Virus record (IMG/VR): IMGVR_UViG_2698536379_000025
DNA length: 7,257 bases
Direction: 5' to 3' (one strand)
From: a virus
Taxonomy: Duplodnaviria; Heunggongvirae; Uroviricota; Caudoviricetes
Numbering within the stretch: position 1 is the stretch's first letter; each line of letters begins with the position of its first letter. The notes under the pieces were generated by a model, which was given only the letters and a program-made list of their open reading frames with translations, did no database searches and was not told the DNA's origin. Both the position numbers and the translations under genes were made by a program. Positions 1,845 through 6,975 of the stretch are shown here, in pieces.

Positions 1845-1856
1845 GGAGCCTGACCG

Positions 1857-2375: not shown

Positions 2376-2382
2376 TTTTCAT

Positions 2383-2403
2383 CCGGTCAGCCAGGCTGAC
2401 CGG
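2383..2403. other. Perfect 10+1+10 palindrome (CCGGTCAGCC A GGCTGACCGG) in the FII-E intergenic region
   Basis: Read directly from the sequence, 8 nt after the FII stop. It could fold as a stem-loop of about 8 bp in the mRNA. No U-tract follows, so it is not a canonical intrinsic terminator. Confidence 0.6.
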
Positions 2404-2432
2404 TTAACCCCCGATTCAGAAGTGAGAAAACC

Positions 2433-2708: not shown

Positions 2709-2860
2709 CGTTTCCGAAAAATCTCTCGGTCGATGACCTGATGGCGGATGTGGCAGTGATATTTCACTGGCCGCCATCAGAACTATATCCCATGAGCCTG
2801 ACCGAACTCATCACATGGCGCGAAAAGGCGCTCCGGCGAAGCGGAAACACGAATGAGTAA
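2433..2860 (+). CDS. E+E': Tail assembly chaperone gpE+E' (programmed -1 frameshift fusion, 142 aa)
   Basis: Slippery heptamer T TTT TTG at 2681-2687 lies 7 codons before the E stop. The -1 frame stays open from 2687 to TAA at 2858-2860, encoding ...VAELGAVTFPKNLSVDDLMADVAVIFHWPPSELYPMSLTELITWREKALRRSGNTNE. The total of 85 + 57 = 142 aa matches P2 E+E'. The E' stop overlaps the T start codon. Confidence 0.8.
2681..2687 (+). other. -1 ribosomal frameshift slippery site (TTTTTTG)
   Basis: Heptamer of the X XXY YYZ class, read in the E frame as GGT TTT TTG. The T6G-type slippery sequence is the established site for P2 E/E' and for the analogous lambda G/GT pair. Confidence 0.8.
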
Positions 2861-5300
2861 CAATGTAAAATTACAGGTATTGCTCAGGGCTGTTGACCAG
2901 GCATCCCGCCCGTTTAAATCCATCCGCACAGCGAGCAAATCGCTGTCGGGGGATATCCGGGAAACACAAAAATCACTGCGCGAGCTGAACGGTCAGGCAT
3001 CCCGTATTGAGGGATTTCGCAAGACCAGTGCACAGCTCGCCGTGACTGGTCATGCACTTGAAAAGGCACGGCAGGAAGCCGAAGCCCTTGCCACACAGTT
3101 TAAAAACACCGAACGTCCGACCCGTGCTCAGGCGAAAGTGCTGGAATCCGCAAAGCGTGCGGCGGAGGACTTACAGGCGAAATATAACCGCCTGACGGAT
3201 TCCGTTAAACGCCAGCAGCGGGAACTGGCCGCTGTGGGAATTAATACCCGCAATCTTGCACATGATGAGCAGGGACTGAAAAACCGTATCAGTGAAACCA
3301 CCGTACAGCTTAACCGTCAGCGTGACGCGCTGGCGCGTGTCAGTGCGCAACAGGCAAAACTTAACGCAGTAAAACAGCGTTATCAGGCCGGAAAGGAACT
3401 GGCAGGAAATATGGCCTCAGTGGGCGCTGCCGGTGTGGGGATTGCTGCTGCGGGAACGATGGCCGGTGTTAAGCTGCTGATGCCCGGTTATGAGTTTGCG
3501 CAGAAAAACTCAGAATTACAGGCTGTGCTCGGAGTGGCAAAAGACTCCGCCGAAATGACCGCACTACGCAAACAGGCGCGCCAGCTCGGCGACAATACCG
3601 CAGCCTCGGCAGATGATGCAGCCGGTGCACAGATTATCATTGCGAAAGCCGGTGGGGATGTTGATGCCATTCAGGCGGCAACGCCGGTCACGCTGAATAT
3701 GGCGCTGGCGAACCGCCGCACGATGGAAGAAAACGCCGCCCTGCTGATGGGGATGAAATCCGCCTTTCAGCTTTCAAACGATAAGGTCGCTCATATCGGG
3801 GATGTTCTCTCCATGACGATGAACAAAACCGCCGCCGATTTTGACGGCATGAGCGATGCGCTGACCTATGCCGCACCTGTGGCAAAAAATGCCGGTGTCA
3901 GCATTGAAGAAACCGCCGCAATGGTCGGGGCGCTGCATGATGCAAAAATCACAGGCTCAATGGCGGGGACGGGAAGCCGTGCCGTGTTAAGCCGCCTGCA
4001 AGCACCGACGGGAAAAGCATGGGATGCACTCAAAGAGCTTGGAGTGAAAACCTCAGACAGCAAGGGAAACACCCGGCCAATATTTACCATTCTGAAAGAA
4101 ATGCAGGCCAGTTTTGAGAAAAACCGGCTCGGTACTGCCCAGCAGGCTGAATACATGAAAACTATTTTCGGGGAGGAGGCCAGCTCAGCCGCCGCCGTGC
4201 TGATGACTGCCGCCTCAACCGGAAAGCTGGACAAACTGACCGCTGCGTTTAAAGCCTCAGACGGGAAGACCGCAGAGCTGGTAAATATCATGCAGGACAA
4301 CCTCGGCGGTGACTTTAAGGAGTTTCAGTCCGCTTATGAGGCGGTGGGGACTGACCTGTTTGACCAGCAGGAAGGCGCACTGCGTAAACTCACTCAGACG
4401 GCCACAAAGTATGTGTTAAAACTCGACGGCTGGATCCAGAAAAACAAATCACTGGCGTCAACCATCGGCCTCATTGTCGGTGGCGCGCTGGCGCTTATTG
4501 GCATCATCGGTGCCATTGGTCTTGTAGCATGGCCGGTTATCACCGGCATCAATGCCATTATCGCGGCAGCAGGCGCAATGGGGGCAATCTTCATGACGGT
4601 TGGCAGTGCTGTTATGACGGCCATCGGGGCGATTAGCTGGCCGGTTGTGGCCGTGGTGGCCGCCATTGTCGCCGGGGCGTTGCTTATCCGTAAATACTGG
4701 GAGCCTGTCAGCGCATTCTTTGGCGGTGTGGTGGAAGGGCTGAAAGCGGCATTTGCGCCGGTGGGGGAACTGTTCACGCCACTTAAGCCGGTGTTTGACT
4801 GGCTGGGTGAAAAGTTACAGGCCGCGTGGCAGTGGTTTAAAAACCTGATTGCCCCGGTCAAAGCCACTCAGGACACCCTGAACCGTTGCCGTGACACGGG
4901 GGTCATGTTCGGGCAGGCACTGGCTGACGCGCTGATGCTGCCGCTTAATGCGTTCAACAAACTGCGCAGTGGTATTGACTGGGTACTGGAAAAACTCGGT
5001 GTTATCAACAAAGAGTCAGACACACTTGACCAGACCGCCGCCAGAACTCAAGCCGCCACGTATGGCAGCGGTGGTTATATTCCGGCGACCAGCTCTTATG
5101 CAGGCTATCAGGCTTATCAGCCGGTCACGGCACCGGCTGGCCGCTCTTATGTGGACCAGAGTAAAAATGAATATCACATCAGCCTGACGGGGGGTACTGC
5201 GCCGGGAACACAGCTTGACCGCCAGTTACAGGATGCGCTCGAAAAATACGAGCGGGATAAACGTGCGCGCGCCCGTGCCAGCATGATGCATGACGGTTAA
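2853..5300 (+). CDS. T: Tail tape measure protein (P2 gpT-like)
   Basis: 815-aa ORF. The N-terminal half is coiled-coil-like and rich in A/Q/R/K. A long Gly/Ala/Ile-rich hydrophobic block (about nt 4449-4690) is typical of tape measure proteins. Located after the E/E' pair. Confidence 0.95.
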   Translation: MSNNVKLQVLLRAVDQASRPFKSIRTASKSLSGDIRETQKSLRELNGQASRIEGFRKTSAQLAVTGHALEKARQEAEALATQFKNTERPTRAQAKVLESAKRAAEDLQAKYNRLTDSVKRQQRELAAVGINTRNLAHDEQGLKNRISETTVQLNRQRDALARVSAQQAKLNAVKQRYQAGKELAGNMASVGAAGVGIAAAGTMAGVKLLMPGYEFAQKNSELQAVLGVAKDSAEMTALRKQARQLGDNTAASADDAAGAQIIIAKAGGDVDAIQAATPVTLNMALANRRTMEENAALLMGMKSAFQLSNDKVAHIGDVLSMTMNKTAADFDGMSDALTYAAPVAKNAGVSIEETAAMVGALHDAKITGSMAGTGSRAVLSRLQAPTGKAWDALKELGVKTSDSKGNTRPIFTILKEMQASFEKNRLGTAQQAEYMKTIFGEEASSAAAVLMTAASTGKLDKLTAAFKASDGKTAELVNIMQDNLGGDFKEFQSAYEAVGTDLFDQQEGALRKLTQTATKYVLKLDGWIQKNKSLASTIGLIVGGALALIGIIGAIGLVAWPVITGINAIIAAAGAMGAIFMTVGSAVMTAIGAISWPVVAVVAAIVAGALLIRKYWEPVSAFFGGVVEGLKAAFAPVGELFTPLKPVFDWLGEKLQAAWQWFKNLIAPVKATQDTLNRCRDTGVMFGQALADALMLPLNAFNKLRSGIDWVLEKLGVINKESDTLDQTAARTQAATYGSGGYIPATSSYAGYQAYQPVTAPAGRSYVDQSKNEYHISLTGGTAPGTQLDRQLQDALEKYERDKRARARASMMHDG

Positions 5301-5314
5301 GGAGGTGACGAAAA

Positions 5315-5794
5315 ATGATGCTCGCGTTAGGTATGTTTGTTTTTATGCGCCAGACGCTGCCACACCAGACCATGCAGCGTGAATCGGATTATCGCTGGCC
5401 GTCAAATTCCCGTATCGGTAAACGGGATGCCTACCAGTTTCTCGGTGTGGGTGAGGAAAACATCACACTTGCCGGTGTGCTTTATCCAGAGCTGACCGGC
5501 GGCAAGCTGACGATGACCACGCTCAGGCTGATGGCAGAGGAAGGCCGGGCGTGGCCGTTGCTGGATGGCACCGGCATGATTTACGGCATGTATGTCATCA
5601 GCAGGGTGAGTGAAACAGGGAGTATTTTCTTTGCAGACGGCACACCCCGAAAAATTGATTTTACGCTGTCGCTCACCCGCGTTGATGAATCACTGGCCGC
5701 GCTTTATGGCGATATAGGTAAACAGGCGGAATCACTCATCGGTAAGGCTGGCAGTATGGCAACTAAATTCACGGGTATGACGGGGGCGGGATAA
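5315..5794 (+). CDS. U: Tail protein gpU-like
   Basis: 159-aa ORF beginning MMLALGMFVFMRQTLPHQTMQRESDYRWPSNSRIGKRDAYQFLGVGEENITLAGVLYPELTGG. GGAGG Shine-Dalgarno at 5301-5305, 9 nt before the ATG. The stop overlaps the D start in TAATG. Confidence 0.9.
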   Translation: MMLALGMFVFMRQTLPHQTMQRESDYRWPSNSRIGKRDAYQFLGVGEENITLAGVLYPELTGGKLTMTTLRLMAEEGRAWPLLDGTGMIYGMYVISRVSETGSIFFADGTPRKIDFTLSLTRVDESLAALYGDIGKQAESLIGKAGSMATKFTGMTGAG

Positions 5795-6957
5795 TGCTGG
5801 ATACGCTGACATTTGATGCAGGCAGTACGCTGACGCCGGATTACATGCTGATGCTCGACAGCAGGGATATTACCGGCAATATCAGCGACCGTCTGATGAG
5901 TATGACCCTGACGGATAACCGGGGCTTTGAGGCTGACCAGCTTGATATTGAACTGAACGATGCCGACGGGCAGGTCGGGCTGCCGGTTCGTGGCGCTGTC
6001 CTGACGGTGTATATCGGCTGGAAAGGTTTTGCCCTGGTATGCAAAGGGAAATTTACCGTTGATGAGGTTGAACACCGGGGCGCACCGGATGTGGTCACCA
6101 TCCGCGCCCGGAGTGCAGATTTTCGCGGGACGCTCAATTCCCGCCGGGAAGGCTCCTGGCATGACACCACGCTCGGTGCGATTGTTGAAGCGATAGCCTC
6201 CCGTAACAGGCTGGAAGCCAGTGTCGCGCCGTCACTGGCCGGAATTAAAATCCCGCACATCGACCAGTCGCAGGAGTCTGATGCGAAATTTCTGACCCGT
6301 CTTGCAGAACGCAACAGCGGTGAGGTGTCGGTAAAAATGGGAAAACTGCTGTTTCTCAAAGCGGGGCAGGGGGTGACGGCCAGCGGTAAAAAAATCCCGC
6401 AGGTCACCATCACCCGCAGCGACGGTGACCGCCATCATTTTGCGATTGCTGACCGTGGAGCCTACACCGGCGTAACGGCAAAGTGGTTACACACCAAAGA
6501 CCCGAAGCCGCAAAAGCAGAAGGTAAAACTGAAACGCAAAAAGAAAGAGAAACACCTGCGCGCACTGGAGCACCCGAAAGCGAAACCGGTCACGCAGAAG
6601 AAAGCGCCAAAAGTACCGGAAGCGCGCGAAGGTGAATACATGGCAGGTGAGGCTGACAATGTTTTTGCCCTGACCACGGTATATGCCACGAAAGCGCAGG
6701 CCATGCGCGCCGCTCAGGCGAAGTGGGATAAACTGCAACGGGGCGTTGCGGAGTTCTCCATCAGCCTGGCTACCGGTCGGGCTGATATTTACACGGAAAC
6801 ACCGGTTAAAGTGTCAGGCTTTAAGCGCGTCATAGACGAGCAGGACTGGACAATCACTAAGGTGACACATTTTCTGAATAATAGCGGCTTCACGACGTCC
6901 TTAGAGCTTGAGGTCAGGCTTTCTGATGTGGAGTACGAAACAGAAGATGATGAGTGA
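5794..6957 (+). CDS. D: Tail protein gpD-like (late control gene D family; baseplate hub, VgrG N-terminal-like fold)
   Basis: 387-aa ORF beginning MLDTLTFDAGSTLTPDYMLMLDSRDITGNISD. Its ATG at 5794 overlaps the U stop. Contains a lysine-rich segment at about 6496-6636. Confidence 0.9.
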   Translation: MLDTLTFDAGSTLTPDYMLMLDSRDITGNISDRLMSMTLTDNRGFEADQLDIELNDADGQVGLPVRGAVLTVYIGWKGFALVCKGKFTVDEVEHRGAPDVVTIRARSADFRGTLNSRREGSWHDTTLGAIVEAIASRNRLEASVAPSLAGIKIPHIDQSQESDAKFLTRLAERNSGEVSVKMGKLLFLKAGQGVTASGKKIPQVTITRSDGDRHHFAIADRGAYTGVTAKWLHTKDPKPQKQKVKLKRKKKEKHLRALEHPKAKPVTQKKAPKVPEAREGEYMAGEADNVFALTTVYATKAQAMRAAQAKWDKLQRGVAEFSISLATGRADIYTETPVKVSGFKRVIDEQDWTITKVTHFLNNSGFTTSLELEVRLSDVEYETEDDE

Positions 6958-6975
6958 TGTTTTTATTTTATGTGT

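Follow-up and report, generated by a model that had tools for sequence, protein, structure and literature searches.

A conserved plus-strand RNA hairpin between the tail tube and chaperone genes of P2-like phages: a putative 3′ boundary of the sheath–tube message

How does a tail operon transcribed from a single late promoter supply sheath and tube proteins, of which each tail contains about 100 or more copies, together with a chaperone, a tape measure protein, gpU and gpD, which are required in few copies? In bacteriophage P2, the reference system for temperate myoviruses and tailocins of a very large family, the disparity between sheath and tube on the one hand and tape measure, gpU and gpD on the other has so far been credited mostly to translation, and our literature searches returned no transcript, 3′-end, half-life or terminator data for P2-like late operons. 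A possible contribution at the level of mRNA is raised by a 7,257-nt stretch of viral DNA (IMG/VR record IMGVR_UViG_2698536379_000025; hereafter, the window), in which an earlier reading made from the sequence alone singled out a perfect 21-bp palindrome at the boundary between the high-copy and low-copy genes and suggested that it might be a partial terminator or attenuator, an RNA processing or stability element, or a protein-binding site.

Results

Location and fold of the palindrome

The window represents the tail operon of a P2-type prophage, with 97% identity to Escherichia phage P2 over practically its full length, and gene names were obtained by carrying the curated P2 annotation over onto the map of open reading frames (ORFs). 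In this map, FI (sheath) occupies positions 654–1844; FII (tail tube) 1857–2375 on the plus strand, with its TGA stop codon at 2373–2375 (an assignment drawing on the ORF list, the 97% identity to P2 and the annotation of gpFII in P2); E (tail assembly chaperone, with the E+E′ frameshift product) 2433–2708, also on the plus strand; T (tape measure) 2853–5300; U 5315–5794; and D 5794–6957, with ogr starting at 6970. According to the transferred annotation, all these genes are driven by the late promoter pF, located upstream of FI. The labels FII and E, which the sequence-only reading had assigned to the genes flanking the palindrome, are correct, the interval at 2376–2432 being the FII–E intergenic gap, with E the first of the genes (E, T, U and D) on its 3′ side. 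This gap of 57 nt accounts for 0.8% of the window and is the sole long gap within the operon: FI and FII are separated by 12 nt and T and U by 14 nt (P2 figures), U and D abut, and E′ overlaps T. At the other end of the window, a 197-amino acid ORF at 1–594, a DNA invertase in the closest records, occupies the place of fun(Z) in P2; homology to the P2 reference begins only at position 574, which makes the sequence preceding pF an exchanged cargo module.

The palindrome reads CCGGTCAGCC-A-GGCTGACCGG at positions 2383–2403, exactly as first described, with arms at 2383–2392 and 2394–2403 that are 100% complementary around a central A at 2393, and lies 7 nt past the FII stop codon and 29 nt ahead of the E start codon. 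Because a 1-nt loop cannot form, the RNA fold predicted with ViennaRNA consists of a 9-bp stem (2383–2391 paired with 2395–2403) closed by the 3-nt loop CAG (2392–2394), with a centroid energy of −16.5 kcal/mol and an energy of −15.8 kcal/mol for the isolated hairpin; the folding calculation that had been suggested for this region thus yields a stable stem-loop of about −16 kcal/mol. Seven of the nine pairs are G-C, and the dimensions of stem and loop fall within those of terminator-type stem-loops (5–14 bp and 3–8 nt, respectively). In long naked-RNA contexts, the pairing probability of the hairpin ranges from 0.36 to 0.97. On the plus strand, the GC-rich hairpin is separated from the stop codon by a pyrimidine-rich 7-nt spacer, TTTTCAT (2376–2382), in a flank that is 78% pyrimidine across the family, and is followed by a pyrimidine-rich tail, TTAACCCCC (2404–2412), a degenerate U-tract with only two U directly past the stem. 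The remainder of the gap (2413–2432) is an A-rich single-stranded linker, which contains a weak Shine–Dalgarno-like GAG(A) for E at 2424–2427 and is a candidate entry region for an endonuclease.

Taken alone, the palindrome is only mildly unusual. Of dinucleotide shuffles of the 7,257-nt window, 8% contain a perfect inverted repeat whose arms measure ≥10 nt and whose loop is no longer than 8 nt (mean 0.12 per shuffle), and the z-score of the 75-nt fold is only −1.6; it is the position of the element and the family-wide conservation of its structure that make it non-random. An Rfam search of positions 1800–2900 on both strands (E-value ≤10) gave no match overlapping 2376–2432, and the curated GenBank record of P2 places terminators and an attenuator elsewhere and none at FII–E, an earlier mention in the original P2 papers being possible. 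A separate perfect 10-nt inverted repeat, CTGATGGCGG / CCGCCATCAG, is found at 2738–2747 and 2771–2780 with a 23-nt spacer; perfect like the FII–E palindrome, it is coding, being located within the E′ extension about 70 nt 5′ of the start of T.

Conservation among P2-like phages of Enterobacterales

Among close relatives, represented by 80 IMG/VR loci with tube proteins identical or near-identical to that of the window, the central base of near-identical copies is freely A or T, and is C in a copy from Escherichia albertii (L090). The rare stem variants in near-identical P2 copies are C-to-U or A-to-G transitions that keep the pairing in the plus-strand RNA, and one variant among such copies opens just the loop-closing pair. 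The copy in P2 itself is imperfect, CCGGTCAGCC-T-GGCTGGCCGG, with T at the center and an A-to-G change in the 3′ arm that produces a U.G wobble, and the U-A pair that makes the window copy perfect is present in only 4 of 73 distinct core hairpins. The perfect 21-bp palindrome, initially put forward as the defining feature, is hence not the conserved state. The exact element occurs in 1550 of 5426 complete E. coli genomes, with a median of one copy and a maximum of three per carrying genome, always between the tube and chaperone genes, and the FII–E gap is the only intergenic occurrence of the core motif in P2. A dispersed repeat of the REP/BIME kind, the hallmark of which is the presence of many copies, was considered and rejected, as the element is single-copy per prophage.

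To cover a broader range, the Enterobacterales were scanned with one genome per species, yielding 80 loci with tube proteins 70–100% identical to that of the window, which together with annotated phages provided 85 distinct tube-to-E gaps (P2/186-like). A GC-rich hairpin with a stem of 7–12 bp and a loop of 3–6 nt is present in 84 of the 85, the sole exception being Yersinia aldovae (L149), with a 29-nt gap (2020–2048) that lacks it. The position is also narrowly confined: the distance from the stop codon to the hairpin is 5–8 nt in 73 of the 85 gaps (range 4–14, median 7), and that from the hairpin to the ATG of E is 23–40 nt in the relatives (median 32). Hairpins of −12 kcal/mol or lower were found in 72 of 75 gaps, compared with 17 of 150 control windows from the tube gene (96% vs. 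11%); a threshold of −9 kcal/mol is reached by 26–35% of the control windows. The dyad, the conservation of which across related phages had been named as a check on its function, is thus kept as a structure, with significant compensatory changes (see below).

Several other features of these gaps were recorded. Of the 85 distinct gaps, 15 have the motif CCTGA or CCCTGA(C) next to the hairpin on its upstream side and 25 on its downstream side; the motif is also present in hairpin-free gaps and in the FI–FII gap of the window (1845–1856; GGAGCCTGACCG). The presence of CCCTGAC on either side of one hairpin (L006) led us to consider a mobile hairpin with a target-site duplication, but flank repeats do not exceed in length those in shuffled pairings (78 sequences, p = 0.9), and this candidate was discarded as a general feature. 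An antisense gene was dismissed as well: the minus-strand ORF at 2379–2777, which ends in the hairpin, is open in just 8 of 87 distinct relatives and is spurious. Two contigs labeled Chryseobacterium sp. (L091) and Vagococcus sp. (L167) carry enterobacterial P2-like tube genes (94% and 86% amino acid identity, respectively), and their host labels probably reflect assembly contamination or mislabeling.

Covariation and strand specificity

Across the family, the hairpins share the stem core GGYCRG/CYGGCC, with variable outer and inner pairs. Covariation was assessed in an alignment of 60 distinct hairpins with gap-free stems of 9 pairs (alignment A3), in which standard pairs fill 96.7% of the cells. 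Changes on both sides of the stem are found at 4 of the 9 pairs (C-G/G-C/A-U, C-G/U-A, A-U/G-C and C-G/U-A/G-C), with 23 double-change cells against 5.9 expected and a covariation score of 0.235 against 0.140; neither value is reached in any of 500 shuffles. Sliding the 3′ partner by 1–3 columns reduces the pairing to 9–48%. Judging from these comparisons, the hairpin is clearly under selection.

The substitutions further discriminate between the strands. Across the stems, G.U wobbles number 60 and A.C or C.A mismatches only 3, and of the hairpins compared, 43 fold better in the sense than in the antisense orientation, 12 fold worse and 10 do equally well (Wilcoxon p = 3 × 10⁻⁸). These counts are not phylogenetically independent, but the wobbles are spread over several pairs and take either orientation. 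At one of the pairs, U.G is the commonest state (34 of 60 sequences), so most relatives have no DNA palindrome at all, and instead of the half-site symmetry of a palindromic protein-binding site in DNA, the family displays asymmetries that are almost exclusively of the G.U type. Because G.U pairs far outnumber A.C mismatches and the sense fold surpasses the antisense one, these patterns point to a constraint acting on the plus-strand RNA helix, with an antisense RNA disfavored and a symmetric protein-binding site in DNA unlikely. Of the initial suggestions, a stem-loop at the boundary between high- and low-copy genes is upheld, whereas the protein-binding site has lost ground to the wobble pairs and the strand bias.

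Terminator-like features

The tail that follows the stem in the window, UUAACCCCC, has two U after the stem and then five C (T-score 1.72), and thereby falls short of the U-tract of a canonical intrinsic terminator (about ≥5 U in the 8 nt after the stem). The d-score of the d'Aubenton-Carafa type is −12.9 for the window hairpin vs. +18 to +40 for the P2 terminators tQ, tV and t_ogr, and a simple consensus terminator scan of the window did not call the FII–E site, in agreement with the original judgment that the element lacks a U-tract and is not a classic intrinsic terminator. That scan did match a terminator-like sequence at 2660–2690, where a hairpin, GCTGGCCGGTAAGGTGGTCGGT, precedes TTTTTTG; this is the annotated −1 programmed frameshift site of E+E′ (P2 19685), and its T-run is the slippery sequence rather than a terminator tail.

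In the family as a whole, the median d-score is −16, and only 9 of the 85 orthologues have values above 0 and score as canonical terminators, among them examples with full U-tracts, such as L160 (tail UUUUUCUUC) and L126 (tail UUAUUUUUCC). Nevertheless, T makes up about 50% of positions +1 to +3 past the stem vs. 26% in the rest of the gap, the subsequent positions being C-rich and G-poor, and it is concentrated beside the stem, with a mean T-score of 1.57 compared with 0.72 in shuffles (42 of 58 tail classes positive, p = 9 × 10⁻⁴). Within the family, then, there is a gradation from true terminators down to hairpins whose U-tract is vestigial, with the P2 group at the weak end. Since the hairpin is kept without a U-tract, its retained function would not require efficient termination; the concentration of T after the stem and the orthologues that score as canonical terminators, by contrast, would be superfluous for a pure decay barrier and thus fit a role in termination.

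Pairing with the ribosome-binding region of E

In the minimum free energy fold, the 5′ flank UUUUCAU pairs with the ribosome-binding region of E, and several relatives seemed to covary, which made an anti-Shine–Dalgarno element a candidate. It was ruled out by comparing cognate with non-cognate duplex energies, for both the upstream flank (p = 0.70) and the tail (p = 1.0). Indeed, the hairpin tail pairs less well with its own Shine–Dalgarno region (−2.5 kcal/mol) than with those of other phages (−3.2 kcal/mol; 85 gaps, permutation p = 1.0), which hints at selection to keep the ribosome-binding site of E unpaired.

Hairpins in more distant P2-like phages

More distant phages carry unrelated GC hairpins in the same gap between the tube gene and E, including Fels-2 (GGCGCGG-GCAG-CCGCGCC), phiCTX (CCGCCGGC-CCG-GCCGGCGG), Klebsiella Dagavirus, phage 500465-1, Burkholderia Milagro, Erwinia ENT90, Yersinia 56.17, and a Shewanella phage in which the hairpin is followed by AUUUUUUAAUU. 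In the phages examined, the FI–FII gap is 9–12 nt long and hairpin-free, with the exception of phiCTX (L168), where the 56-nt sheath–tube gap (890–945) contains a hairpin, CTCCCCGGACGGGGAG, unlike in the other phages. A strong hairpin in the tube–E gap is present in only ~38–40% of 40 distinct phiCTX-like sequences (mostly environmental; L214–L253), and in the remaining ~60%, this gap is ~17–35 nt long and has no strong hairpin. The hairpin behaves as a separate module subject to gain, loss and replacement, useful yet dispensable, given that Y. aldovae and ~60% of the phiCTX-like relatives do without it. Such natural variants (L149, L214–L253; 17–35-nt gaps) could serve as controls for its function.

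Discussion

The palindrome gives the late message of the P2 F operon (FI-FII-E-E′-T-U-D) a hairpin on the plus strand. Our preferred reading, to which we assign about even odds, is that an mRNA 3′ end is generated or protected at this intercistronic hairpin, which would block exonucleases and terminate transcription weakly at most, such that FI–FII mRNA would exceed E-T-U-D mRNA. Under this scheme, the hairpin would be the 3′ boundary of an FI–FII segment more abundant than the segment downstream. As the tail UUAACCCCC is a poor U-tract, RNA polymerase would mostly read through, and a minority of transcripts may end at the hairpin. An endonuclease, such as RNase E, would cut the weakly translated E-T-U-D part, whereupon 3′-to-5′ exonucleases would trim the message back to the 9-bp GC stem and stall there. 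PNPase and RNase II are stalled by GC stems of about 7 bp or more. The outcome would be a stable, translatable sheath and tube message: the chaperone, the tape measure protein, gpU and gpD would be served by less mRNA than the two proteins of which a tail needs ~100 or more copies. The Shine–Dalgarno sequence of E (GAGA) is weaker than that of FII (GGAG), which could lower the ribosome cover downstream and direct cleavage there, as in a published model of differential decay (PMC5927463). The precedents are well documented: a 3′ protective structure at malE-malF, differential decay of operons across the E. coli genome (both PMC5927463), and the wide use of weak terminators by phages to balance expression (PMC9163698). 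The FII–E element has the structural and evolutionary attributes of a protective 3′ stem-loop of the malEFG type, namely a stable sense hairpin just 3′ of the higher-expressed cistron that is conserved in 84 of 85 gaps with covariation above that in all 500 shuffles. In the P2 group, an exonuclease barrier after downstream cleavage is probably the dominant mode, with a small contribution of termination being likely. Weighing against this reading are the variable pairing probability in long naked-RNA contexts, the T-rich start of the tail, the orthologues that score as terminators, the lineages that lack the hairpin and the silence of the curated P2 record on this site.

The main competitor to this decay barrier is a predominantly leaky intrinsic (Rho-independent) terminator, at which a fixed fraction of RNA polymerase would stop, so that E-T-U-D would be less transcribed and the terminated transcript would be stabilized as well; we regard it as possible, albeit somewhat unlikely. 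The geometry is terminator-like, with a GC stem of 8–10 bp and a loop of 3–5 nt, T is enriched at +1 to +3 and concentrated there relative to shuffles, 9 of the 85 orthologues are canonical by score with several more near the threshold, and in Shewanella and some Pseudomonas-type relatives, the hairpin is followed by a U-run. Furthermore, P2 late promoters are Ogr-activated and are not known to be subject to antitermination, so internal terminators would act, and the balancing of expression by weak terminators has been documented for phages (PMC9163698). Against this, the stem in the window is followed by two U and then five C, with a d-score of −12.9 compared with +18 to +40, the consensus scan is silent, and most orthologues score below 0 even though the hairpin is conserved. 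A mainly transcriptional attenuator and a decay barrier are hard to separate other than by experiment. A translational insulator would also fit the narrow spacing of the element. Hairpins may block the scanning of ribosomes after termination, and an insulator of this kind would prevent ribosomes that leave the heavily translated tube gene from sliding to, or re-initiating at, E, the expression of which would be set by its own weak ribosome-binding site with the mRNA level unchanged. We know of no direct precedent for such a hairpin in phage tail operons. The junctions FI–FII and E/E′-T-U-D span 0–14 nt or overlap and are likely coupled, and the sole long gap holds the hairpin, which is placed behind a terminating ribosome (5–8 nt from the stop) and just beyond the initiation footprint (~32 nt to the ATG); the weaker pairing of the cognate tail with the Shine–Dalgarno region likewise suggests that the ribosome-binding site is kept open. 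Yet, an insulator leaves the enrichment of T after the stem and the orthologues with full U-tracts unexplained, and a hairpin-free gap would uncouple translation too, which makes this an improbable account. The same spacing would permit a translation-gated attenuator, in which formation of the hairpin, and with it termination or 3′-end protection, would depend on the distance between ribosome and RNA polymerase through FII: because the 5′ arm starts 5–8 nt past the stop codon in most relatives, the base of the stem would be hidden under a ribosome positioned on the tube stop codon. Such gating, which we deem quite improbable, would tie expression of the downstream tail genes to synthesis of the tube protein. 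A related possibility is that a specific RNA-binding factor reads the nearly invariant GGYCRG/CYGGCC core.

The remaining explanations run against the strand bias, the covariation or the shortness of the stem. That the hairpin is functionless, a neutral leftover or a hitch-hiker, could be argued from the lineages that lack it and from the frequency of moderate hairpins in GC-rich coding DNA, but it is very hard to reconcile with the compensatory changes, the 96% vs. 11% occurrence at −12 kcal/mol and the independent occurrence of hairpins at this site in remote clades, and we rate it as very unlikely. Equally unlikely is an RNase III site, since that enzyme requires roughly 20 bp of duplex RNA and the stems, at 9–10 bp here and 7–12 bp in the relatives, are too short. 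Least credible is a role of the palindrome in DNA, as a cruciform, a hotspot of recombination or the binding site of a dimeric protein: the window copy does have a perfect 21-bp dyad, but the symmetry is broken in most relatives by a T-to-G change that remains paired, as G.U, only in the plus-strand RNA, the stem sequence is wholly different in other clades while the structure stays, and the central base is free to vary.

Both leaky terminators and protective stem-loops can be found in textbooks, and a decay barrier at FII–E would introduce no new principle and would hardly surprise specialists. What the conserved hairpin at the boundary between high- and low-copy genes offers is a simple, testable layer of control at the mRNA level and, for the engineering of tailocin or phage operons, a small part with which gene ratios could be tuned.

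Comparison with known systems

The P2 late operons hold several GC hairpins without a U-tract, one of which is the 'putative transcription attenuator' of the O operon (AF063097, 8399–8417). Like the FII–E element, it is a GC hairpin, GCTGGCACGCTGTGCCAGC, in a late operon and lacks a U-tract (T-score 0.13); however, it is part of the coding region of lysC, is itself only putative in function and has no sequence in common with the FII–E hairpin. In the same genome (L334), the 99-nt M–L gap (5901–5999) contains a GC-rich fold of −46 kcal/mol followed by ACUUUUCAG, which the P2 record leaves unannotated; lying behind the block of capsid genes, it may constitute another intercistronic element.

Gene ratios are set by leaky terminators within operons at T-phi of T7, after the major capsid gene, and at the rplL-rpoB attenuator. 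These two, along with the weak phage terminators detected by ONT-cappable-seq (PMC9163698), resemble the FII–E element in having a GC hairpin directly after an abundant structural gene, within a longer transcription unit whose downstream genes depend on read-through. They have U-tracts and measured termination, in contrast to the FII–E hairpin with its tail UUAACCCCC and d-score of −12.9.

Segmental mRNA stability conferred by intercistronic hairpins has been proven experimentally in the puf operon of Rhodobacter. The proposed role of the FII–E hairpin would have in common with puf that the stoichiometry of structural proteins made from one promoter is set by segmental mRNA stability; puf, however, belongs to another organism and has a larger, multi-hairpin structure, and the mechanism is experimentally proven only there. 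A further counterpart is the malE-malF stem-loop (PMC5927463), which is also a stable sense hairpin directly 3′ of the cistron with the higher need, lacks a U-tract, is conserved in structure between species, and is accompanied by lower ribosome loading downstream, as we predict for FII–E. The malE-malF element is a multi-copy REP repeat, unlike the single-copy FII–E hairpin, which bears no resemblance to REP, and most of the protective structures in that study (PMC5927463) lie inside the downstream coding sequence, whereas the FII–E hairpin is intergenic and its role in decay is a prediction. On the strength of these parallels, the mode of action proposed for the FII–E hairpin, that of a protective stem-loop between cistrons or of a leaky terminator within the operon, belongs to a known type of operon control.
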